Part shown: piece by piece, positions 5,972-49,233 of the stretch
How positions within the stretch are numbered: the first letter of the stretch is position 1
Layout: the number at the start of each line of letters is the position of its first letter
NCBI GenBank assembly: GCA_001787005.1
Contig: MFUV01000009.1
Coordinates: 1,929-61,772, forward strand
From: Candidatus Nomurabacteria bacterium RIFCSPLOWO2_01_FULL_39_18
Lineage (GTDB): Bacteria > Patescibacteriota > Minisyncoccia > Phycocordibacterales > UBA9973
Length of the DNA: 59,844 bases
Direction: 5' to 3'
Translations under genes and position numbers: made by a program
The notes under the pieces: model-generated
The model's database searches: none
Seen by the model: only the letters and a program-made list of their open reading frames with translations
What the model was told of the DNA's origin: nothing

Positions 5972-6025
5972 CCTCACCCCTTCGCCCCTCTCCTTGTCAA
6001 GGAGAGGGGTTGGGGGAGAGGTGAA
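5970..6025. repeat. Family-1 nested palindrome, copy B (intergenic, SEDS/folD)
   Basis: GACCTCACCCC-TTCG-CCCCTCTCC-TTGTCAA-GGAGAGGGG-TT-GGGGGAGAGGTGAA. Confidence 0.85.
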
Positions 6026-6032
6026 TTATTAT

Positions 6033-6914
6033 ATGGAAATTATTGATGGGAGGAAATTAAATAAAGAAATTTTGGGAAAAGTGAAGGCGGAGGTCGTTTC
6101 GCTTTCCTTCCAGCCGATTTTTTGCGATGTCTTGGTGGGGAGCGACCCGGCAAGTGTTCAGTATGTGGGGATGAAAGCAAAAACGGCAGAAGCGGTGGGG
6201 ATGAAATTTCACAGTGCGAATTTCCCCGCATCCATAACCACGGAGGAGCTGATAAAAGAAATAAAAATTCTGAACAAAGTAGAAAATATGTGCGGAATAA
6301 TTATTCAGCTTCCATTGCCTCCTCATATTGAAAAACAATTAGCGCTTGACGCTCTTGACGTGCATCTTGATGTGGACTGCCTGGGTACGATAGCGAGTGA
6401 AAAATTTTATCAAGGTGAAACCTTGATAAAATATCCTACTGCGCTGGCTTGTATGGCGCTTCTTGATTCAATTAATTTAGACTTAACGCAGAAAAAAATA
6501 GTTGTTTTTGGGCAGGGGATGCTGGTGGGCAAGCCTGTGACAGCCCTGCTCAAATTTAGAAATTTGTCGCCAACAATTATTACTAGCAAAACTTCCGATA
6601 AAGAAAAAATTATTAAGCAAGCAGATGTTATAATTTCAGGCATAGGGAAGGGGAAATACATTACAGGTGATATGATTAAAGAAGGAGCAGTTTTGATTGA
6701 TGCTGGAACTTCTGAATCCGGAGCCGGCATCGTGGGCGATGTTAATTTGGAGTCTGTCAAAGATGTGGCAGGATTTGTTTCTCCCGTGCCCGGCGGCGTG
6801 GGGCCCGTAACTGTGGCCATGCTTCTCAAGAATGTGTTAACCGTGGCGAAGAACAAAGACCTCACCCCAGCCCCTCTCCTTGTAAAGGAGAGGGGAAGAG
6901 AGATTTTTAAATAA
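6033..6914 (+). CDS. folD: Bifunctional methylenetetrahydrofolate dehydrogenase/cyclohydrolase
   Basis: MEIIDGRKL..., GIIIQLPLP and VPGGVGPVTVAMLLKNV are present. The start was moved to the ATG at 6033 because the upstream 27 codons only translate the palindrome. The C-terminal tail DLTPAPLLVKERGREIFK is encoded by repeat copy C. Confidence 0.85.
   Translation: MEIIDGRKLNKEILGKVKAEVVSLSFQPIFCDVLVGSDPASVQYVGMKAKTAEAVGMKFHSANFPASITTEELIKEIKILNKVENMCGIIIQLPLPPHIEKQLALDALDVHLDVDCLGTIASEKFYQGETLIKYPTALACMALLDSINLDLTQKKIVVFGQGMLVGKPVTALLKFRNLSPTIITSKTSDKEKIIKQADVIISGIGKGKYITGDMIKEGAVLIDAGTSESGAGIVGDVNLESVKDVAGFVSPVPGGVGPVTVAMLLKNVLTVAKNKDLTPAPLLVKERGREIFK
6858..6895. repeat. Family-1 palindrome, copy C (left outer arm plus inner palindrome only)
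   Basis: GACCTCACCCC-AG-CCCCTCTCC-TTGTAAA-GGAGAGGGG. The right outer arm is absent. Confidence 0.8.
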
Positions 6915-13260: not shown

Positions 13261-14172
13261 ATGGCTACGCTTTATACTCACCAAACTCAAAATATTACAA
13301 AAACTTGGATTTTAATGACCTTGTTTTTTGTCGTTATCATCGGGCTCGGCTGGTTTTTTAGTTTTTATTACGGCAATCCAGACATTCTATATTTTTTTGT
13401 TGCCTTCAGTATTCTGATGAATATTTTCTCATATTGGTTTTCAGATAAAATTGTTCTGACACTCGCAGGGGCAAAGCTAGCCAAGAGGGAAGAGTATTTT
13501 GATCTATATACCAGCGTTGAGAATCTTTCAATTACGGCTGGGCTACCGATGCCGAAAGTCTATGTAGTGGAAGATCCAGCGCCGAATGCTTTCGCCACAG
13601 GGCGGAACAAAGAGCATGCTGTCGTCTGCGTCACGACCGGGCTTCTTAAAATTTTAGAGAAAAATGAGCTAGAGGGCGTGATAGCCCACGAGCTCTCCCA
13701 TATCGGCAATCGTGATATGTTGCTTTCTACTGTTGTGGTGGTGCTGGTTGGTTTTGTTTCCATTATTGCAGATGTGTTCAGGCGCAATTTATTTTTTAGC
13801 AGGAGCAGAGACAGCGACAATAAAGCGCAAGGTATAATTTTGCTTATCGGAATAATTCTTTCAATTTTAGCGCCGATTTTTGCCATACTTATCCAGCTGG
13901 CCATCTCTCGCAAACGCGAATTTCTAGCAGATGCCTCCGGAGCATTGCTCATGCGCTATCCAGAAGGACTCTCTAATGCATTGCGTAAAATTTCTCAGAA
14001 TAGCAAACCGATGACTCGCCAATCCAATACTATTGCGCATCTATACATTGCCGACCCGAAAGGAACTGGAGTTGGCCTGCCTGCGCAGGCAGGCAAAAAA
14101 ATCAGCGGCCTCTTCGCTACCCATCCGCCGGTAGAAGAGAGAATCAAGGCTTTGGTTGGACAAAAGGAATGA
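13261..14172 (+). CDS. htpX: M48 zinc metalloprotease HtpX
   Basis: Has HELSHIGNRD (HExxH), four TM segments and a C-terminal LFATHPPVEERI. Confidence 0.9.
   Translation: MATLYTHQTQNITKTWILMTLFFVVIIGLGWFFSFYYGNPDILYFFVAFSILMNIFSYWFSDKIVLTLAGAKLAKREEYFDLYTSVENLSITAGLPMPKVYVVEDPAPNAFATGRNKEHAVVCVTTGLLKILEKNELEGVIAHELSHIGNRDMLLSTVVVVLVGFVSIIADVFRRNLFFSRSRDSDNKAQGIILLIGIILSILAPIFAILIQLAISRKREFLADASGALLMRYPEGLSNALRKISQNSKPMTRQSNTIAHLYIADPKGTGVGLPAQAGKKISGLFATHPPVEERIKALVGQKE
14075..14094. repeat. Family-2 palindrome (GCCTGCCTGCGCAGGCAGGC), in frame inside htpX
   Basis: A perfect 20-bp palindrome that encodes GLPAQAG. Related copies lie at 31152, 31216, 31619 and 48224. Confidence 0.8.
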
Positions 14173-16699: not shown

Positions 16700-16725
16700 C
16701 GTCTAAAAACAAAAACAATAAATTG

Positions 16726-17042
16726 TTGCGGGAGGCCGAATCGAACGGCCGTCTCAAGGTTATGCTTTACCACCATAGTTTTCACTACCCTTCAAATACT
16801 TTTAGGTTTGTGGTCTGGACTATACCATCTCCTTTTTTGAAAAACCAAAATTAAGGAGCTCATCGTCTAGTCTCTACACTTTTATTTCTGAAAAAATTCA
16901 GAAAATTTAGCTCGGAATTGTCTTTCTGTTTTCTCACAGAGAGGATTTCTCCGAATTTGATGAGTTCATACCTCAAAGTTTCCCAAGAGGGGGCCCATAG
17001 AATAACGCTGAGCCTTGCGAGATGCCTCTTCTCTATCCCGCT
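16726..17042 (-). tRNA. tRNA-Met(CAU), initiator-like, split by a 246-nt group I intron in the anticodon loop
   Basis: Exon 1 is AGCGGGA-TA-GAGA-AGAGGCA-TCTC-G-CAAGG-CT. Exon 2 is CATAA-CCTTG-AGAC-GGCCG-TTCGATT-CGGCC-TCCCGCA-A. The acceptor resembles E. coli tRNA-fMet (CGCGGGG/CCCCGCAA), with an unpaired 1:72 position and A73. Confidence 0.7.
16765..17010 (-). ncRNA. Group I intron (ORF-less) in the tRNA-Met anticodon loop, between U33 and C34
   Basis: The 5' exon ends in U and the intron ends in G. Exon GGCU can pair with intron GGCC (P1, with a U.G pair). GTAGAGACTAGAC and GGTATAGTCCAGAC match the R and S (P7) consensus elements. Confidence 0.7.
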
Positions 17043-20569: not shown

Positions 20570-21190
20570 ATGTATATACACCTTATAAGGTCTGCTATGG
20601 ATAAAAAGATTTTAGAAAATTTATATATAACAAAAAAACTCTCGTCTGCTGATATTGCTAGAAAATTTAGTTGCTCAGAAACCAAAATTAATTACTGGCT
20701 AGCTTTTCACAAGATAAAGAAAAGAACAATATCCGAGGCTATATATCAAAAAAACAATCCAAAAGGTGACCCCTTTTTATTTAATCGTCCGAGAACCCGT
20801 AATCAAATGTTTCTTTTTGGATTAGGGCTTGGTTTGTATTGGGGTGAGGGTACAAAAAGAAATCTCCATATGGTTAGGTTGGGTAATTCAGATCCACAAT
20901 TAATAAAGAAATTTATTGATTTTTTGGTTGATATCTATAATATTAATAAAAAAAGATTAAGGTTCCAACTACAAATTTATGATGACCTAAATTCAAATGA
21001 ACTTCTTAAGTTTTGGGCAAAATATTTATCAGTAAAAAATACTCAATTTTCTAAAACAACCATCTTAAAAAGAAGAGGAAAAGGAACTTATCTAGAAAAG
21101 ATGAAATACGGTGTAATAATTGTTGGTTTTGGAAATGTAAAATTAAGGAATCTTATTTGTGCTCAAATTGCAAACATGGAGAATTTATAA
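20570..21190 (+). CDS. HTH-LAGLIDADG endonuclease-like protein (free-standing, second paralogue)
   Basis: Has an HTH (LSSADIARKFSCSETKINYWL) and a LAGLIDADG block MFLFGLGLGLYWGEGTK. An alternative start exists at 20597. Confidence 0.7.
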   Translation: MYIHLIRSAMDKKILENLYITKKLSSADIARKFSCSETKINYWLAFHKIKKRTISEAIYQKNNPKGDPFLFNRPRTRNQMFLFGLGLGLYWGEGTKRNLHMVRLGNSDPQLIKKFIDFLVDIYNINKKRLRFQLQIYDDLNSNELLKFWAKYLSVKNTQFSKTTILKRRGKGTYLEKMKYGVIIVGFGNVKLRNLICAQIANMENL

Positions 21191-21213
21191 TACTATTTAC
21201 AAACAGTTAATAA

Positions 21214-21288
21214 GCCGTCGTAGCTTAGTGGTAAAGCACGTCATTGGTAATGACGAGACCGTGAGTCCGATCCTCACCGACGGCTCCA
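21214..21288 (+). tRNA. tRNA-Thr(GGU), CCA encoded
   Basis: GCCGTCG-TA-GCTT-AGTGGTA-AAGC-A-CGTCA-TTGGTAA-TGACG-AGACC-GTGAG-TCCGATC-CTCAC-CGACGGC-T-CCA. T-loop position 55 is C. Confidence 0.8.
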
Positions 21289-21361
21289 GCCACCCTAGCT
21301 CAGTTGGTAGAGCACGACTTTCGTAAAGTCGGGGTCCGCAGTTCGATCCTGCGGGGTGGCT
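21289..21361 (+). tRNA. tRNA-Thr(CGU)
   Basis: GCCACCC-TA-GCTC-AGTTGGTA-GAGC-A-CGACT-TTCGTAA-AGTCG-GGGTC-CGCAG-TTCGATC-CTGCG-GGGTGGC-T. It abuts the previous tRNA and the following ATG. Confidence 0.85.
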
Positions 21362-21362
21362 C

Positions 21363-21614
21363 ATGCCATATTATGTTTATTTTTTAAAAAGTTTGAAAGA
21401 TGGAAGATATTATGTTGGCGTCTCAAACGATGTAACAAGACGATTAGAAGAACACAATAAAGGACTTTCAAAATTTACAGCGCCTTTTAGTCCTTATGAA
21501 TTAAAAAGAGTTGAAAAATTTGTCAAAATAGAGGATGCTTATAAAAGAGAAAATTTTATTAAGAAAAAGAAAAGCAAAAAAATTATTGAATTAATTATTA
21601 ATTCGCCGATATAG
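21363..21614 (+). CDS. Mini GIY-YIG nuclease-domain protein
   Basis: Has YYVYFLKSLKDGRYYVGVSNDVTRRLEEHN (GIY...YVG...R...H/N). It is wedged between two tRNA-Thr(CGU) genes with no spacer. Confidence 0.75.
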   Translation: MPYYVYFLKSLKDGRYYVGVSNDVTRRLEEHNKGLSKFTAPFSPYELKRVEKFVKIEDAYKRENFIKKKKSKKIIELIINSPI

Positions 21615-21740
21615 TCCCGATGCTCTTGCATAGCAAGAAATCGGGATCCCGATTTCGCGAAAGCGAACATCGGGACTCAGCTGGCAGAACACTACTTTCG
21701 TAAAGTAGGAACGTGGGTTCGATTCCCACTTTCGGCTCCA
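21605..21740 (+). tRNA. Second tRNA-Thr(CGU)-like gene, interrupted after nt 10 by a 61-nt double hairpin. May be a pseudogene
   Basis: GCCGATA-TA-G[61 nt]CTC-AGCTGGCA-GAAC-A-CTACT-TTCGTAA-AGTAG-GAAC-GTGGG-TTCGATT-CCCAC-TTTCGGC-T-CCA. The acceptor stem pairs at 6 of 7 positions. Confidence 0.45.
21615..21675. repeat. Family-3 tandem hairpins (TCCCGAY...RTCGGGA, two units)
   Basis: TCCCGAT-GCTCTTGCATAGCAAGAA-ATCGGGA followed by TCCCGAT-TTCGCGAAAGCGAAC-ATCGGGA. Related units lie at 35355 and 37418. Confidence 0.75.
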
Positions 21741-21745
21741 GGTTT

Positions 21746-22048
21746 TTATTCTCCTATCAATATTCCGGCAGTAAGCCCGACCATTAAAGCAATTCCGCCC
21801 AGTATTAATATTCGAAGTCCTGATTTAAGGATTGGTTGTTTAGTAAATTTTGTCATGCTCATCCCAAGCGTGAAGAGCCCAATCAGAGTTATTACTATAG
21901 ACAGAGGTAGGGCATTTTTAATAGATAATACAAGATAAAAAAACAATGGGACGATACCACCCAAGATATACGCAAGAAACATATAAAATCCGCCCTTCAG
22001 AGATACGGATTTTTGGTTGTCTGAAATTCTTAGCTCGTGCGTGACCAT
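21746..22048 (-). CDS. VIT1/CCC1-family transporter, C-terminal (TM) half
   Basis: MVTHELRIS...GGIVPL with three TM helices. It is in frame with the upstream half. Confidence 0.6.
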   Translation of the reverse strand: MVTHELRISDNQKSVSLKGGFYMFLAYILGGIVPLFFYLVLSIKNALPLSIVITLIGLFTLGMSMTKFTKQPILKSGLRILILGGIALMVGLTAGILIGE

Positions 22049-22054
22049 TTCTTT

Positions 22055-22441
22055 TTAAATGAGTTTCTCATTTCGTGAAGCTTCTTCTGACATTTGCCTT
22101 GCTAAATTTTCTGACCAACCATTTTCTAAATACATTTCATAAAGTTCCTCCTTTTCCTCTTTTGGAAATTTTTTTAGTTCCTCCTTTTCTTCTTTTATTT
22201 TCCTCTCCTCTATTTCTTCTTGGGAACGATTTGACAAATAAGATCCTATGCCCATGGAGATAGATTCTACGGAAATGATGACTATTCCCGCCAGAATAAC
22301 TGTGGCGCGACTGTTGCTACCAATGGCTATGCCCGTGATTGAACCCAAGGTGGAAACCATGCCGTCTTCCATGCCGAAAACCACTTCTCTAAATACATTC
22401 GCAATAGAAGACTTTTGGTGATGTATATAATCTTTGTTCAT
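22055..22441 (-). CDS. VIT1/CCC1-family transporter, N-terminal half, ending at an in-frame TAA
   Basis: FREVVFGMEDGMVSTLGSITGIA plus a Glu-rich cytoplasmic segment. The junction reads KLI-TAA-KE-MVTHEL. Confidence 0.6.
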   Translation of the reverse strand: MNKDYIHHQKSSIANVFREVVFGMEDGMVSTLGSITGIAIGSNSRATVILAGIVIISVESISMGIGSYLSNRSQEEIEERKIKEEKEELKKFPKEEKEELYEMYLENGWSENLARQMSEEASRNEKLI

Positions 22442-22565: not shown

Positions 22566-23490
22566 TGATACACACGATATAGATGAACAAATTAGGAAAC
22601 TAGAGGAAGGTATGGCACTTCCGGATTTTTGGAATGATAAGGTTAAGGCGCGGGCGGTACTCCGAGAACTGGCGGAGCTGAAGAATAAAAAGGAAGGCTT
22701 AGGAAAATATGATAAAGGCAATGCCATACTTACAATAATTTCTGGCGCGGGCGGAGACGATGCCGAAGATTTCTCCGCTATGCTTTTGTCGATGTATCTG
22801 AAATATGCTGACAGAAAAGGATGGGGCATTTCTTTTATTCATGAACACAAGAATGATCACGGGGGTTATAGGAATACCACAATAGAAATTTCTGACCCCA
22901 CCCTTCGCCCTCCCCTTGCCAAGGGGAGGGTTGGGGAGAGGTCGGGTCCCTACGGGACCTTGAAAAACGAATCCGGCGTGCACCGCCTGGTGCGCATTTC
23001 TCCCTTTAATGCCAAGAAGCTACGCCACACGTCCTTTTCTCTAGTTGAAGTTTTGCCGAAATTTTCAAAATTAGAAGAACGCGATGTGGCTATACCTGAA
23101 GCGGATTTAAAAATAGAATTTGCTCGCTCGTCAGGCCCGGGAGGTCAAAATGTGAATAAAAGAGAAACAGCTGTCAGGATTGTGCACGTGCCGACCGGCA
23201 TTTCTGCGCAAGCTTCCGGCGAACGCTCCCAAGAACAGAATCGTGAGTCTGCTCTGTCCATCTTGCGGGCGAAGATCTTCAAAAAAGCGCAGGATGAGAA
23301 AAAGAGCATTGAGGAAAGCTTGAAAATAAATAAAGGCACAGAAATAGAATGGGGGAGTCAGATACGTTCATACGTACTTCATCCTTATAAAATGGTCAAA
23401 GATCATAGAACTGGAGCGGAGACTTCGAACATTGATGCGGTTTTGGATGGTGATATAGACTTATTTGTGGATGCAGAAAAAGACTTGTAA
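22534..23490 (+). CDS. prfB: Peptide chain release factor 2 (short form, no recognisable +1 frameshift site)
   Basis: Has SPF (HRLVRISPFN), GGQ (SSGPGGQNVNK) and WGSQIRSYVLHPY. At 318 aa it has a much reduced domain 1. Alternative starts are at 22546 and 22558. Confidence 0.85.
   Translation: MVWEMTKIMPDDTHDIDEQIRKLEEGMALPDFWNDKVKARAVLRELAELKNKKEGLGKYDKGNAILTIISGAGGDDAEDFSAMLLSMYLKYADRKGWGISFIHEHKNDHGGYRNTTIEISDPTLRPPLAKGRVGERSGPYGTLKNESGVHRLVRISPFNAKKLRHTSFSLVEVLPKFSKLEERDVAIPEADLKIEFARSSGPGGQNVNKRETAVRIVHVPTGISAQASGERSQEQNRESALSILRAKIFKKAQDEKKSIEESLKINKGTEIEWGSQIRSYVLHPYKMVKDHRTGAETSNIDAVLDGDIDLFVDAEKDL
22894..22944. repeat. Family-1 palindrome, copy E, a 51-nt in-frame insertion in prfB
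   Basis: GACCCCACCC-TTCG-CCCTCCCC-TTGCCAA-GGGGAGGG-TT-GGGGAGAGGTCG encodes DPTLRPPLAKGRVGERS, between TIEIS and GPYGTLKNESGVHRLV. Confidence 0.85.
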
Positions 23491-31118: not shown

Positions 31119-31151
31119 ATTTATAATATCACGAGCTGCGGGACTTGGAGT

Positions 31152-31170
31152 CCATGCCTGCGCATACAGG
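31152..31170. repeat. Family-2 palindrome, degenerate copy
   Basis: CCATGCCTGCGCATACAGG. Confidence 0.5.
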
Positions 31171-31215
31171 GAACCAAGATTCATTGCTCCAGAGGCAATT
31201 TGCCTACCGTTAGAC

Positions 31216-31231
31216 CTGCCTGCGCAGGCAG
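31216..31231. repeat. Family-2 palindrome copy
   Basis: CTGCCTGCGCAGGCAG, a perfect 16-bp palindrome. Confidence 0.75.
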
Positions 31232-31263
31232 ACGATCTCCCAATATCTGATTCCTGCACAGAG

Positions 31264-31334
31264 CTGGGAGACTTGGATTCGAACCAAGATGACACCCTCC
31301 AGAGGGGTGAATCCTACCATTAGATGATCTCCCA
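31264..31334 (-). tRNA. tRNA-Gln(CUG)
   Basis: TGGGAGA-TC-ATCT-AATGGTA-GGAT-T-CACCC-CTCTGGA-GGGTG-TCAT-CTTGG-TTCGAAT-CCAAG-TCTCCCA-G. U1:A72 and G73 are typical of bacterial tRNA-Gln. Confidence 0.85.
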
Positions 31335-31407: not shown

Positions 31408-31602
31408 TTAGAGCCTTTCATAACTTCTGGCCTCCTTTTCTGAGCTAAATTCTTTTTTAAAAATTAAATGAAATGGTCTATAAGCTTTTGTCGACAGAAC
31501 TCTACCTTCATTGTGTTCCTTAAAGCGTGTAGATAATCTATTTGTACTACCTACGTAATACCATTTCTTAATAGAACTTTTTAGCATGTATACGTACCAC
31601 AT
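31408..31602 (-). CDS. Mini GIY-YIG nuclease-domain protein (C-terminally short)
   Basis: Encodes MWYVYMLKSSIKKWYYVGSTNRLSTRFKEHN.... Its ATG lies 2 nt after a tRNA-Gln 5' fragment. Confidence 0.7.
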   Translation of the reverse strand: MWYVYMLKSSIKKWYYVGSTNRLSTRFKEHNEGRVLSTKAYRPFHLIFKKEFSSEKEARSYERL

Positions 31603-31604
31603 AT

Positions 31605-31646
31605 GTCCTACCGTTAGACCTGCCTGCGCAGGCAGGCGATCTCCCA
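31605..31646 (-). pseudogene. tRNA-Gln 5' fragment (acceptor plus D arm) with a family-2 palindrome after nt 10
   Basis: TGGGAGA-TC-G[CCTGCCTGCGCAGGCAGG]TCT-AACGGTA-GGAC, followed directly by the GIY-YIG start codon. Confidence 0.55.
31619..31636. repeat. Family-2 palindrome copy
   Basis: CCTGCCTGCGCAGGCAGG, a perfect 18-bp palindrome. Confidence 0.8.
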
Positions 31647-35354: not shown

Positions 35355-35375
35355 GTCCCGACGGAAAGTCGGGAT
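35355..35375. repeat. Family-3 hairpin in the 5' leader of the DUF1761 gene
   Basis: GTCCCGAC-GGAAA-GTCGGGAT, starting 14 nt after the TGtTATAAT box at 35333-35341. Confidence 0.7.
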
Positions 35376-37417: not shown

Positions 37418-37462
37418 GTCCCGACGTAAAGTCGGGATCCCGACCCTAAAAGGCGTCGGGAT
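37418..37462. repeat. Family-3 tandem hairpins in the 5' leader of the DUF4870 gene
   Basis: TCCCGAC-GTAAA-GTCGGGA followed by TCCCGAC-CCTAAAAGGC-GTCGGGA, downstream of the TGcTATAAT box at 37369-37377. Confidence 0.75.
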
Positions 37463-37479
37463 TAATAAATTAAAAATAT

Positions 37480-37854
37480 ATGGACGTTCAAAATAATAAT
37501 AATACAACAGAAGAAAAAAATACTCCAGAGGTTGGAGCGGAAGCGGGGAAGCATGAAAAGGGTCTTTTGATGGGAGTTTTGGCATATCTTGGACCATTAG
37601 TCATCATACCTTATATGGTGGCGGAAGATAATCCATTCGTAAAGTTTCATATCAAGCAGGGTCTTGTATTGCTTGCTTTCCATGTTATTCTTTGGGTCCT
37701 TACCCCTATGTTTTTTCCTGGAATGTGGAGTATTGTGAAGTTGATAAATTTGGCGCTAACAGTGCTTTCAATAATAGGCATTGTGAATGTACTCCAGAAA
37801 AAAGAAAGAATTCTCCCCGTTATTGGTGGCCTATCTTCATATCTTAAGTTTTAA
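37480..37854 (+). CDS. DUF4870-family membrane protein
   Basis: Has LAYLGPLVIIPYMVAEDNPFVKFHIKQGLVL. Confidence 0.5.
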   Translation: MDVQNNNNTTEEKNTPEVGAEAGKHEKGLLMGVLAYLGPLVIIPYMVAEDNPFVKFHIKQGLVLLAFHVILWVLTPMFFPGMWSIVKLINLALTVLSIIGIVNVLQKKERILPVIGGLSSYLKF

Positions 37855-48204: not shown

Positions 48205-49233
48205 TTACTCTTCTTTTTTATCTCCTGTCTGCGCAGGCAGGTCTTTTTTTTCTCCCTTATGCCCATGAGCATCAACTTCGTAGGAAGTATTTTGTTGTTC
48301 AAAGAAGTTTACCAGTTCAAAAACGTCTGTCGCGGTGGACATCCACTTGGCTGGATTGGTTACGCCGAAATGCGCCTCAAGTCCCAGCTCTTCGAGTCTT
48401 CTGTCTGCTACGTATTGCACGTATTGATTTACATAGTCCGCGTTTAACCCCAGGATTCCTTTAGGGAACATGTCTTTATTGTAATTAACTTCCAAGTCAA
48501 CTCCTTCAATAATTATATTTCTGATTTCTTCAGCAAACTCCGCAGTTAGAAGTTCTGCGTTTTCTTCGAGAACTGTGTGGATGAGCTGGATGCCAAACTT
48601 CAGATGAAGACTTTCGTCGCGGAGCACCCAGTTTATCAAAGAACCAAAATTACGTAGTTGGTTTCTTTGTCTGAAGGATAAGGCAACCATAAACCCTGAA
48701 TAAAACCAAATTCCTTCCATGACTATATTATACGCAACGAGGTTGCGGATGAAATCTTTTTTTCCTTCTGTGGTTTCAATATCGAGCGATTGTTCGGTCA
48801 TTCTTGTCAGATATTGATTAATGAAGGCTTCCTTTCTTTGCATTGAAGGAAGTTCAAGATGAGTATCGTAGACCTTGCTTCTATCAAGAGGAAAAGTCTC
48901 AAGAACATATTCAAAAGCCACACAGTGGTTTGCTTCTTCGAACATTTGTTTTGCCAGGTACAGGTGACATTCAGGTGATTTAAGATATGGGTATACGCCC
49001 AGGGCGAGAGTTCTATTCACAATAAGCTCAGCCGGATTAAAAAATGACATTAAAAACTGAACAGCAAATCTTTCATCGCTTGTCATTGATTTCCAATCGG
49101 CCAGGTCCTCCCCGAGCGCTATTTCATGAGGAAACCAGCTGTTTCTGACAGCTTGGTTATAGAGCTCGTAAGCCCATTTGTACTTCATGGGGTGTAAATT
49201 TACATCCGTTGGAGATGTTTTTCCTAGAATCAT
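48205..49233 (-). CDS. nrdB: Ribonucleotide reductase class I beta subunit
   Basis: Has di-iron ligand motifs FEEANHCVAFEYV and MEGIWFYSGF...RDESLHL. The tail DLPAQTGDKKEE is encoded by a family-2 palindrome. Confidence 0.9.
   Translation of the reverse strand: MILGKTSPTDVNLHPMKYKWAYELYNQAVRNSWFPHEIALGEDLADWKSMTSDERFAVQFLMSFFNPAELIVNRTLALGVYPYLKSPECHLYLAKQMFEEANHCVAFEYVLETFPLDRSKVYDTHLELPSMQRKEAFINQYLTRMTEQSLDIETTEGKKDFIRNLVAYNIVMEGIWFYSGFMVALSFRQRNQLRNFGSLINWVLRDESLHLKFGIQLIHTVLEENAELLTAEFAEEIRNIIIEGVDLEVNYNKDMFPKGILGLNADYVNQYVQYVADRRLEELGLEAHFGVTNPAKWMSTATDVFELVNFFEQQNTSYEVDAHGHKGEKKDLPAQTGDKKEE
48224..48241. repeat. Family-2 palindrome copy in the nrdB 3' end
   Basis: CCTGTCTGCGCAGGCAGG, with one mismatch. 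Confidence 0.7.

Follow-up and report, generated by a model that had tools for sequence, protein, structure and literature searches.

Small GIY-YIG nuclease genes beside hairpin-interrupted tRNA copies in uncultured bacteria: a probable tRNA-gene-associated cassette

Three tRNA-like sequences in a contig of Candidatus Nomurabacteria bacterium RIFCSPLOWO2_01_FULL_39_18 are broken at the same point, directly after G10: one resembling tRNA-Thr(CGT) by 61 nt, and two resembling tRNA-Gln by 18 nt each. An earlier note, made from the letters of the DNA, had pointed to this shared insertion site, which we confirm, and had proposed either that insertion is directed at tRNA gene DNA or that the inserts are D-arm intervening sequences removed from the RNA. 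The arrangement raises the question of whether the interrupted sequences are working genes, and of what brought palindromes of different families to one position. The whole stretch analysed, referred to here as the window, is 59,844 nt long; its gene content is bacterial, and it also holds rRNA. An organellar source, suspected at first from the rRNA, group I introns and palindromes, was rejected in view of this gene content and of the contig being a Rifle groundwater MAG.

By direct reading, the interrupted tRNA-Thr(CGT) gene (no. 2 of two, plus strand) starts with G1 at 21605 and runs as GCCGATA-TA-G to G10 at 21614; these positions 1-10 (GCCGATATAG, 21605..21614) match the intact orthologues at loci L012 and L013 exactly. 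A family-3 double hairpin of 61 nt follows (21615..21675), made of two units in inverted orientation, TCCCGATGCTCTTGCATAGCAAGAAATCGGGA and TCCCGATTTCGCGAAAGCGAACATCGGGA, each with a TCCCGAT / ATCGGGA stem, and folding gives two autonomous hairpins. On the 3' side the tRNA continues with CTCAGCTGGCAGAAC, has the anticodon CGT, and closes with TTTCGGC-T-CCA at 21740, its CCA end being encoded; this part (positions 11-76 plus CCA, 21676..21740, plus strand) is 94-97% identical to the intact orthologues. Neither ARAGORN nor Rfam calls the gene as it stands, and ARAGORN returns tRNA-Thr(cgt) once the insert is excised. The sole acceptor mismatch of the excised tRNA, T6.T67, is also present in the intact orthologues. 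Placement of the insert at 11/12 (21616-21676) is equally possible and yields a perfect GTTC/GAAC D stem, the same as in the uninterrupted orthologue.

This gene ends a longer Thr module (21204..21738, plus strand), delimited by its identity to relatives. Upstream of it lie, all on the plus strand, an intact tRNA-Thr(GGT) (21214..21288; ARAGORN, Rfam tRNA 68.2 bits), an intact tRNA-Thr(CGT) no. 1 (21289..21362; ARAGORN, Rfam 60 bits) and an ORF for an 83-aa GIY-YIG nuclease (21363..21614; Pfam PF01541, E 8.8e-14). The parts are tightly packed: tRNA-Thr(CGT) no. 1 abuts the ATG of the nuclease ORF, and the final 10 nt of that ORF are positions 1-10 of the interrupted tRNA, with its stop codon TAG at tRNA positions 8-10. 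The small GIY-YIG genes of this locus and of the Gln locus, and a palindrome in a T loop at the latter, had escaped the earlier note. At the orthologous loci L012 and L013, tRNA-Thr(CGT) no. 2 is uninterrupted and copy no. 1 is absent, unlike the window, where the interrupted gene is accompanied by an additional intact one. We therefore take no. 1 to be the working copy that replaces no. 2. The GIY-YIG ORFs of L012 and L013 are 84-86% identical to that of the window, and both loci carry a 5' stub of tRNA-Thr(GGT), consisting of GCCGTCGTAG, the double hairpin and CTTAG, upstream of a replacement tRNA-Thr(GGT).

The 535-bp Thr module is 99.25% identical to its counterparts at L004, L007 and L008, where the flanking genes have 66-76% DNA identity to those of the window, and the high identity stops where the interrupted tRNA ends. 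Given that the module is 99% identical while its flanking genes are at about 70%, the sequences indicate that it moved recently between diverged genomes, and it behaves as one transferable unit. The same module is present in independent ENA, JGI and NCBI assemblies. Identity comparison also suggests that L001 is an assembly chimera joined at the shared module. An ORF next to the module (20570-21190) has no sequence match in Pfam, NCBIfam or PDB; a GLGLGLYWGEG motif seen by eye had raised a LAGLIDADG endonuclease as a candidate, which was dropped when those searches came back empty.

At the second locus, on the minus strand, GlnC (31605..31646) was recognized by direct reading and palindrome search as the 5' remnant of an old tRNA-Gln: positions 1-10, TGGGAGATCG (31646..31637), are followed by the palindrome CCTGCCTGCGCAGGCAGG (31619-31636) and by TCTAACGGTAGGAC (31618..31605). 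GlnC is a 5' fragment only, reaching position ~24-26, and it stops at the ATG of a second GIY-YIG ORF of 64 aa (31408..31602, minus strand; Pfam PF01541, E 8.6e-16). In alignment this ORF lacks the C-terminal helix owing to an early stop, and it is probably decaying. The intact tRNA-Gln(CTG) (31263..31334, minus strand; ARAGORN, Rfam 53.7 bits) is the working copy. GlnB (31137..31242, minus strand) is a full-length old tRNA-Gln(CTG) with two family-2 palindromes, of which the first (31215-31232), the same 18 nt as in GlnC, follows G10 in the 5' strand of the D stem, and the second, related to it, lies in the T loop (31152-31170). It has mismatches in the acceptor stem (G3.G70, A5.C68) and in the D stem, and ARAGORN calls it tRNA-Gln only with both palindromes removed. 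The Gln junction is uncertain by one base (9/10 or 10/11) due to a flanking G. GlnB and GlnC hardly differ in their 5' parts, and their D-stem palindromes probably represent one insertion that was duplicated later. Hence, of the claim that three insertions from two families share one position, the position holds, while the near-identity of GlnB and GlnC means that the window probably contains two independent D-arm events, not three. In both window loci, the GIY-YIG ORF lies between an intact and an interrupted tRNA of one anticodon.

Palindromes of the three families found in the window are scattered over coding, leader and RNA contexts. A second family-3 double hairpin (37419..37461) lies upstream of ORF 37480-37854, and a single family-3 hairpin followed by a degenerate second one (35356..35374) lies upstream of a DUF1761 gene; both are in 5' leaders, about 14 nt after GTTATAAT boxes. 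Palindrome search further placed family-2 copies in frame in two genes, one for a peptidase M48 (14076..14093) and one for the small subunit of ribonucleotide reductase, where the copy has one mismatch and lies at the gene's 3' end (48224..48241); a release-factor gene also has an in-frame palindrome copy. In shuffled versions of the window, the expected counts are 0.00 for family-3 hairpins and 0.02 for family-2 palindromes. The exact CCTGCCTGCGCAGGCAGG makes up 60 of the 120 metagenome matches listed, and the family-2 palindrome lies mostly outside tRNAs among these matches, with some copies of CCTGCCTGCGCAGGCAGG flanked by direct repeats of 7-11 bp.

The double hairpin (TCCCGAY..RTCGGGA, twice) has at least 120 matching stretches, whose sources include CPR, Omnitrophota, Margulisiibacteriota and further phyla. 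With the exception of ten protein-seeded loci, these surveys were seeded on the hairpin itself, and their counts apply among the matches listed. An intact tRNA lies within 300 nt of 43 of the 113 double hairpins listed, and 21 of the same 113 are flanked by TAG/CT, against a background of 0.11% (p ~6e-40). Among the matches listed, 30 junctions could be mapped onto the neighbouring tRNA; 23 are upstream of the intact copy, and position 10 (junction 10/11) is the mode (8/30, p ~2.5e-8 versus a uniform distribution). Given these two p values, the shared position is not due to chance. Family-3 hairpins lie within tRNA sequence well in excess of chance. Most favoured is the D stem's 5' strand, at 10/11 to 11/12, a preference seen across several phyla and at least nine tRNA species; this supports and extends the idea of directed insertion into tRNA gene DNA. 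A second site that both families share is the T loop behind GGTTC, where family-3 copies lie at L064 and L098 and a family-2 copy in GlnB. A single target word was considered and rejected: TAG/CT fits the 21 of 113 listed matches but not CGT/CTAG in Glu, TCG/TCT in Gln, or the T-loop site after GGTTC. Since the junction sequences vary, the preference is positional and not for one word.

One layout, namely tRNA positions 1 to 10-16, hairpin, continuation to position ~26, ORF and intact tRNA, recurs for Thr, Ala, Glu, Pro, Arg, Val, His and Leu; at L083, L098 and L191, the 3' part of the old gene is retained downstream of a sequence-divergent new tRNA. The hairpin is a unit plus its inverted copy and so is two-fold symmetric, each unit with a conserved purine-purine mismatch. 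Among the matches listed, 89 of 113 first units have a G directly after TCCCGAY, 93 of 113 second units have a C directly before RTCGGGA, and the Y:R pair covaries (C-G in 76, T-A in 25). Phage carriage was considered and dropped, as the sole match to a viral contig was a spurious coding repeat.

When the ORFs within 1 kb of hairpins were clustered, small GIY-YIG ORFs formed the only recurrent family (15 ORFs in 13 loci among the matches listed), at a median distance of 77 nt from the hairpin. In the same clustering no transposase, Y1 or other, recurs within 1 kb among the matches listed, and a RAYT-like or other transposase was therefore rejected as the hairpin's partner; by Pfam and ORF clustering, no recombinase adjoins the loci either. 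Ten GIY-YIG/tRNA loci were chosen without regard to hairpins, through protein homology or because they were already in the window; all ten contain remnants with hairpins, and in nine the hairpin sits at 10/11 to 11/12. The 3' end of the ORF overlaps or abuts a same-strand tRNA in 17 of 30 cases. The hairpin-plus-nuclease arrangement occurs in many uncultured bacterial phyla. At L235, a GIY-YIG ORF and a family-2 palindrome lie within an RNase P RNA gene.

The 83-aa protein is the catalytic domain alone, with no linked sequence-specific DNA-binding domain. Its nearest solved structures are UPF0213 (1zg2, 1ywl) and SLX1, and the NCBIfam group I intron endonuclease model gives the GIY-YIG ORFs 16-22 bits against a cut-off of 56. 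The small nuclease family has about 3000 detectable members, annotated merely as 'GIY-YIG nuclease family protein'. Hairpin type and nuclease lineage tend to go together, the types being the TCCCGAY double hairpin, the TCCCGCC variant and the CCTGCC palindrome, as suggested by nucleases beside one type being 44% (CCTGCC pair) or 57% (TCCCGCC pair) identical, a correlation made up of few pairs with long branches.

In our judgement, the interrupted tRNA-Thr and tRNA-Gln sequences are probably disabled old tRNA copies belonging to a selfish cassette with a small GIY-YIG nuclease. This reading starts from what was directly observed: how the loci are built, that this layout recurs across phyla, that the interrupted copies are redundant, that hairpin, nuclease and tRNA are specifically associated, and that the Thr module was recently transferred. 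The cassette would have a single protein, the SLX1/UPF0213-type nuclease of ~83 aa, whose ORF is pressed against the 5' end of a tRNA, usually with its stop codon inside it. By supplying or regenerating an intact tRNA of the same anticodon, the cassette would cause no loss to the cell. The displaced copy, or its 5' stub, bears the GC-rich hairpin, which mostly lies at 10/11 to 11/12 in the D stem's 5' strand and more rarely in the T loop or in lieu of the anticodon arm, and the hairpin would move together with the cassette. Spread may proceed by double-strand-break repair or recombination, with conserved tRNA sequence as the homology arms.

The hairpin would act at the DNA level, where its two-fold symmetry would suit a dimeric structure-specific nuclease on an extruded cruciform. 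Three functions can be inferred for it: a substrate or cut site of the nuclease; a spoiler that would render the old copy immune to cutting; and/or a spacer that would interrupt the short direct repeat formed by old and new positions 1-26 and so prevent deletion of the ORF. The intact neighbour frequently matches the hairpin-bearing stub in local sequence (e.g. at L262); hence a simple model of a spoiled cleavage site does not explain why the intact copy is spared. Integration of the attP x attB kind through the hairpin fits L191 and L098, where both flanking repeats hold the hairpin at one and the same position, but not L083. More speculatively, and with a rather low probability in our view, nuclease and cognate hairpin may form a structure-guided tRNA gene-replacement drive, in which the nuclease would recognize a DNA shape and not a sequence, be it the folded D-arm region of a tRNA gene or the extruded hairpin, and would cut where the D stem begins on its 5' side. 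Were this true, the cassette would install its own tRNA while the hairpin disables the resident copy, making the host dependent on it. In a bolder form of the idea, the hairpin and its tRNA-derived arms would be a nucleic-acid guide for a nuclease without a DNA-binding domain.

The cassette reading has to be set against the possibility that the hairpins are themselves autonomous, selfish repeats, palindromic like REP/BIME or Rickettsia RPE and with an insertion preference of their own, which persist where they are harmless, including tRNA stubs left by other events, the GIY-YIG gene being coincidental or a mobiliser in trans, as RAYT is. We regard this as possible, with a minor share of the probability. 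Among the matches listed, about 60% of double hairpins lie far from any tRNA or GIY-YIG gene, some in coding sequence and 5' leaders, and for this reason the double hairpin must also lead an independent existence outside these loci. The scatter of the three families in the window and of CCTGCCTGCGCAGGCAGG in metagenomes points the same way, as do the unit-plus-inverted-unit structure resembling BIME/REPIN doublets and the hairpins flanking the nuclease gene as REPs flank RAYT genes. However, stub hairpins in ten out of ten GIY-YIG/tRNA loci are a regularity beyond passive accumulation, the varied junctions leave the shared position unexplained by one target word, no transposase recurs near the listed hairpins, and hairpin copies within one genome vary in their distal stems, unlike a recently amplified repeat. 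It is improbable, in our estimate, that the hairpins instead act in RNA, where they would stabilise, terminate or throttle a nuclease mRNA made from the tRNA promoter or serve as processing sites, their stub position merely following from that of the ORF. In most loci they do separate the ORF from the presumed tRNA promoter; in the Thr module, L032 and L267 they come directly after the stop codon, and in two leaders of the window they lie behind GTTATAAT boxes. Their predicted stability is high (z = -6.4). Yet two-fold symmetry, which gives the same hairpin on both strands, is needless for an RNA element; hairpins also occur inside ORFs and in the 3' remnants downstream of the new tRNA at L083, L098 and L191; there is no U tract 3' of them; and neither they nor the interrupted tRNAs match any Rfam family at gathering thresholds or at E<=1.

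That the inserts are non-canonical D-arm intervening sequences, spliced from the RNA of functional genes, has in its favour that the excised Thr-like gene makes a good tRNA with an encoded CCA and a T6.T67 mismatch common to its intact orthologues. Excision, however, restores a complete tRNA in just 2 of the 114 hosts among the matches listed, the other 112 being fragments, and this led us to replace the intron idea with that of remnants. Hosts that are complete, or nearly so, all have an intact tRNA of the same anticodon beside them; GlnC amounts to a 24-nt stub, and in GlnB the stems are broken and a second insert is present. The predicted fold of the Thr-like RNA consists of an acceptor stem, two self-contained hairpins, an anticodon arm and a T arm, and no bulge-helix-bulge (3-4-3) forms at 21614/21615 or 21675/21676. 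Nor is there room for a ribozyme: group I introns, the classical bacterial kind, have a core of ~200 nt or more and sit in the anticodon loop, as does the genuine 246-nt one in tRNA-Met of the same window (~16725-17042), whereas the inserts measure 61 and 18-19 nt and lie in the D stem or T loop. Splicing is thus very improbable. The remaining reading, that the shared position is chance or that the inserts are mis-assemblies at repeats, can draw on the window having no more than two independent D-arm events and on the probably chimeric L001, where an assembler seems to have switched genomes at the module. We give it next to no weight, as the identical module recurs in the independent assemblies named above and the pattern is seen in more than 100 loci from unrelated projects (p < 1e-7). 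The positional coincidence is therefore upheld, and its reading as a bacterial D-arm intron is corrected.

If the cassette reading is right, a compact mobile element of ~0.3-0.5 kb contributes to the turnover of tRNA genes in streamlined uncultured bacteria, across species boundaries. The minimal nuclease and its conserved two-fold symmetric hairpin make a testable enzyme-substrate hypothesis, possibly of a nuclease that reads shape. Annotation is affected as well, given that ARAGORN and Rfam are blind to hairpin-bearing stubs and pseudo-tRNAs and that the ORF overlaps a tRNA gene, and metagenome assemblers are able to join different genomes at a shared module, as at L001.

In the mostly open-access literature searched, we came across no account of tRNA remnants interrupted by hairpins, nor of small GIY-YIG genes linked to tRNAs; the one related report concerns GIY-YIG ORFs within CPR rRNA insertions. 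Several known systems nevertheless share parts of the arrangement. Integrase-driven islands insert into a tRNA gene, restore it with a carried copy and leave a partial duplicate. The cassette too restores an intact tRNA and leaves a partial duplicate, but it duplicates the 5' segment (positions 1 to ~26) and not the 3' one, has no integrase, measures ~0.3 kb, and has a hairpin on the leftover. REP/BIME (REPIN) elements are extragenic, and their associated protein, RAYT, is a Y1 transposase of the IS200/IS605 type. They resemble our hairpins as dispersed, short, GC-rich imperfect palindromes, often in inverted doublets, that flank an associated nuclease gene. In contrast to them, the partner here is a GIY-YIG nuclease, the hairpins lie inside tRNAs and in frame in ORFs and not just between genes, and the stem sequence is common to several phyla. 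Rickettsia palindromic elements are 100-150 bp long and confined to one lineage; families 1 and 2 of the window are, like them, tolerated in frame in protein-coding genes and in RNA genes. To our knowledge, RPEs have no nuclease partner and no preference for a tRNA position.

Free-standing GIY-YIG homing endonucleases are typified by T4 SegB, encoded in the phage tRNA gene cluster, and I-TevI. Like them, the cassette has a GIY-YIG catalytic domain and a selfish ORF among tRNA genes, with signs that the ORF recently spread sideways together with its adjacent markers, and a stage of decay in the truncated ORF at 31408-31602. Its protein differs in having no DNA-binding domain and in grouping by sequence with UPF0213/SLX1 and not with I-TevI, and its ORF differs in overlapping the 5' end of a tRNA. 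The ORF comes with a tRNA that duplicates or replaces the old one, and the displaced copy bears a conserved hairpin; such features are not known to be described for Seg enzymes. In CPR rRNA genes, GIY-YIG-encoding insertions that are not introns have been reported and judged by their authors to lie outside a homing context (PMC11270868). The organism group, the protein superfamily and the use of structured RNA genes as sites are the same as here; the sites in that report, however, are in rRNA, and it mentions no tRNA genes, replacement copies or hairpins. Non-canonical tRNA introns with a bulge-helix-bulge, known from Archaea and Cyanidioschyzon (PMC3728597, PMC3978253), likewise insert in the D arm, whereas here the host is bacterial, the interrupted genes are mostly truncated and accompanied by a working twin, and the bulge-helix-bulge is absent. 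Taken together, the cassette is best filed close to free-standing homing nucleases and to palindromic-repeat elements.

The Thr-like gene on the forward strand begins GCCGATA-TA-G. A 61-nt insert (21615-21675) sits directly after G10 (21614) and forms a pair of hairpins, both built on a TCCCGAT/ATCGGGA stem; beyond it the gene resumes with CTCAGCTGGCAGAAC, the anticodon CGT, a T arm and TTTCGGC-T-CCA. On the reverse strand, two Gln sequences each read TGGGAGATCG, then the 18-nt perfect palindrome CCTGCCTGCGCAGGCAGG (31619-31636 and 31215-31232, −), then TCTAACGG. The interrupted sequences escape both ARAGORN and the Rfam tRNA model, even at E≤1; with the inserts excised, ARAGORN reports a tRNA-Thr(cgt) and a tRNA-Gln(ctg). 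The upstream Gln sequence (31605-31646, −) is a mere stub that extends to about position 24-26, while the downstream, full-length copy (31137-31242, −) carries a further, related palindrome within the T loop (31152-31170), along with mismatches in the acceptor and D stems. The earlier note counted three insertions, from two palindrome families, at one tRNA position. Three interrupted sequences do exist, but since the two Gln 5′ parts are near-identical, they probably go back to a single insertion that was later present in two copies. Likewise, both families can be read as following G10, but for Thr a placement at 11/12 is equally possible, and the GTTC/GAAC D stem of the orthologue is then restored.

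The note also described the hairpins at both loci and missed their setting, as each locus holds a small GIY-YIG nuclease ORF (Pfam PF01541). The Thr locus consists of tRNA-Thr(GGT) (21214-21288), an intact tRNA-Thr(CGT) (no. 1, 21289-21362) and an 83-aa GIY-YIG ORF (21363-21614), whose final ten bases are tRNA positions 1-10 and whose stop codon, TAG, is positions 8-10; on its 3′ side lie the double hairpin and the remainder of the interrupted tRNA-Thr(CGT) (no. 2). The Gln locus (−) runs from the palindrome stub through a truncated 64-aa GIY-YIG ORF (31602..31408, −) and an intact tRNA-Gln(CTG) to the full-length copy with its two palindromes. Just upstream of the Thr module, a 206-aa ORF (20570-21190) has a GLGLGLYWGEG motif that is LAGLIDADG-like by eye, and finds no match in Pfam, NCBIfam or PDB sequences.

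By sequence comparison, the interrupted copies are redundant and derived. Related contigs (L012, L013-L018) encode a nuclease 84-86% identical to that of the Thr locus, followed by an uninterrupted orthologue of the Thr-like gene (GCCGATATAGTTCAGTGG...), which ARAGORN calls Thr(cgt). These genomes are without copy no. 1; thus, the presence of the insert goes with that of an extra intact copy. The T6.T67 acceptor mismatch of the Thr-like gene is no sign of decay, since the intact orthologues have it too. The D arm, immediately 3′ of the hairpin, accounts for all differences from L013 (T11C, an additional C at position 17 and a change at position 20). Upstream of their tRNA-Thr(GGT), these relatives also have a stub, GCCGTCGTAG/double hairpin/CTTAG, so that the family-3 hairpin (the TCCCGAY..RTCGGGA type) occupies the same position as in the window, in a different tRNA-Thr.

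One genome per bacterial species was scanned for TCCCGAY-N(6-30)-RTCGGGA-TCCCGAY-N(6-30)-RTCGGGR, and the double hairpin was found in at least 120 stretches. Hosts among the matches listed include many CPR classes, Omnitrophota (one complete genome), Margulisiibacteriota/Saganbacteria, WOR-1 and others. An intact tRNA lies within 300 nt of 43 of the 113 copies listed, against roughly 3% expected, a rough estimate from typical bacterial tRNA density. When ORFs within 1 kb of the hairpins were clustered, small GIY-YIG proteins were the sole recurrent family among the matches listed (15 ORFs at 13 loci, median distance 77 nt); no other family occurs in more than three loci, and no transposase recurs.

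Base-by-base reading gives a common layout: an old tRNA from position 1 to 10-16, the hairpin, a continuation to about position 24-28, the ORF, and an intact tRNA with the same anticodon, within which the ORF's stop codon falls. It was found for Thr, Ala, Glu, Pro, Arg, Val, His, Asp and Leu, and for 17 of 30 small GIY-YIG ORFs the 3′ end runs into or adjoins a tRNA on the same strand. Three loci (L083, L098 and L191) keep the old gene's 3′ portion downstream of the new tRNA, and the acceptor stems of old and new genes are unlike; hence, the cassette came with its own tRNA. L191, a GIY-YIG and tRNA-Leu cassette, has the window's family-2 palindrome (the CCTGCC-type 18-mer) at both sides. In L098 and L019 the anticodon arm is replaced by a single hairpin.

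A profile of these nucleases finds 2974 homologues. As a check independent of the hairpins, five loci were picked solely by protein homology, and a hairpin-bearing remnant lies beside the ORF in all five. The four tRNA-Glu loci read GGCCCCATCGT/double hairpin/CTAG (11/12); in the tRNA-Pro locus, hairpins replace the D arm directly 3′ of the stop codon and also split the T loop. With L012, L013, L019 and the two window loci added, the remnant bears a hairpin in 10 of 10 loci and has it in the 5′ strand of the D stem in 9 of 10. The claim of a defined tRNA position is borne out in that the 5′ strand of the D stem is preferred. Among the matches listed, 30 junctions align to an intact tRNA in their own locus: 8 are at position 10 (p about 2.5e-8 against a uniform expectation), 5 at 11-13, 4 at 15-16, and the others spread out to the T loop and the 3′ strand of the acceptor stem. 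The junction lies upstream of the intact copy in 23 of 30. TAG/CT flanks occur in 21 of the 113 copies listed versus a 0.11% background (p about 6e-40); junction sequences vary (TAG/CT, CGT/CTAG, TCG/TCT), and thus the common feature is the position, not a target word.

A different GC-rich palindrome follows GGTTC in the T loop of a tRNA-Phe(GAA)-like sequence in Kerfeldbacteria (L053, about 2100-2230), the same site as in the full-length Gln copy. On a metagenome contig (L235, a Ga0207698-type locus), a GIY-YIG ORF between inverted repeats and a family-2 palindrome lie inside an apparent gene for RNase P RNA, recognised by its GAGGAAAGUCCG motif; similar ORFs between inverted repeats occur in L111 and L130.

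The note's other suggestion was that the inserts are D-arm intervening sequences removed from the RNA. This is very unlikely, because a bulge-helix-bulge motif was sought and none found, the inserts lack a ribozyme core, and the host sequences are incomplete and accompanied by working twins. Of the 114 cases listed, just two, each with an intact twin alongside, yield a whole tRNA once the hairpin is excised (the Thr gene of the window and a tRNA-Pro of L093); the usual host is therefore a fragment. In contrast, tRNA-Met(CAT) of the same window (about 16725-17042, −) has a classical bacterial tRNA intron: a genuine 246-nt group I intron in the anticodon loop (ARAGORN -i; core at 16791-17020, Rfam Intron_gpI, 60.8 bits), which the orthologue in a related species lacks (L004, 2521-2592).

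The Thr module (21204-21738) starts shortly ahead of tRNA-Thr(GGT) and runs up to the interrupted tRNA's 3′ end. Over this stretch it shares 99.25% identity with its counterparts in three related contigs (L004, L007 and L008), whereas flanking genes are 66-76% identical at the DNA level and the neighbouring release factor 73% at the protein level. This indicates that the entire module, interrupted tRNA included, was recently transferred or converted. Its boundaries coincide with the terminal tRNA genes or fall barely beyond them. L001 is 100% identical to the window through the module's end and thereafter continues as the other species, that of L004; it is probably an assembly chimera joined at the shared 535-bp module. 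Beyond the module, a VIT1-family gene (21746-22441, −) is broken into two ORFs of 128 and 100 aa; the related species lacks this whole segment and has the release factor gene directly after the tRNA module.

The window DNA is bacterial, with about 40% G+C, tightly packed ORFs, 5S rRNA and the 3′ end of a 23S rRNA gene with a group I intron. It matches contig MFTP01000017.1 (GCA_001785325.1, a groundwater metagenome-assembled genome), several independent assemblies contain near-identical contigs, and the related genomes are members of the Candidate Phyla Radiation (CPR, Patescibacteria). Between two 5S rRNA matches separated by about 1 kb (731-837 and 1875-1979; 58 and 45 bits), on the opposite strand, sits an odd 87-nt tRNA with anticodon CCA (Trp; 1123-1209, −). 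Its long variable arm (including CCTGCCTAGG), discriminator A and tRNA-Leu-like D arm (GGCGGAATTGGTAGACGC) look like a tRNA-Leu(CAA) body with a single anticodon change. Palindromes of a third family (CCCCTCTCCTTGnCAAGGAGAGGGG, flanked by CCTCACCCC..) occur at 22908-22930, 35-59, 5985-6009 and 6871-6895. One copy adds an in-frame, 15-residue insert to the peptide-chain release factor gene, missing from the 73%-identical L001 orthologue; others lie at the FolD C-terminus, in the ftsW-folD gap and beside the 23S 3′ region. Family-2 palindromes also occur in frame in a peptidase M48 gene (14076-14093) as well as at the 3′ end of the gene for the ribonucleotide reductase small subunit (48224-48241). 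The exact 18-mer makes up half of the CCTGCCT-N4-AGGCAGG metagenome matches listed, some with flanking direct repeats of 7-11 bp (L144, L186 and L205).

The inserts thus mark disabled tRNA copies in a mobile GIY-YIG/tRNA cassette, of which the hairpin is a regular component, placed by preference in the 5′ strand of the D stem. We favour a role for it at the DNA level, tied to the nuclease: it might be the enzyme's substrate or cut site, might confer immunity on the old tRNA copy, or might break a 26-nt direct repeat whose recombination would otherwise delete the ORF. The stem has seven conserved base pairs, the seventh covarying (C-G 76, T-A 25); in 89 of 113 first units a G comes after the stem and faces a purine, and 93 of 113 second units have the mirror-image C. 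The double hairpin thus consists of one unit and an inverted copy of it, giving an identical mismatched hairpin on both strands, a symmetry that would suit a dimeric enzyme on DNA better than an RNA signal. Nucleases beside the same hairpin type tend, over few cases, to be mutually closer relatives. Nevertheless, the intact neighbour often retains the same local sequence (L262), a weak point of this view, and since most hairpins in the surveyed genomes lie away from tRNAs and nucleases, the hairpin may also spread independently, in a REP/RAYT-like relation to the nuclease.

The nearest solved structures to the nuclease are UPF0213 proteins (1zg2 and 1ywl), then SLX1, a structure-specific nuclease, and weakly I-TevI. 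The small protein is the catalytic domain alone and scores far under the cut-off of the group I intron endonuclease model. GIY-YIG ORFs are known from non-intron insertions in CPR rRNA genes (PMC11270868), and GIY-YIG genes are listed among those exchanged by Patescibacteria (PMC12455944); in our incomplete coverage of the literature, we found no description of tRNA-linked small GIY-YIG genes, of replacement tRNAs or of hairpin-bearing stubs. The observation of tRNA inserts is real, then, and leads to something larger than was proposed: a cassette best filed with the free-standing homing-nuclease and palindromic-repeat elements, as a variant of them.
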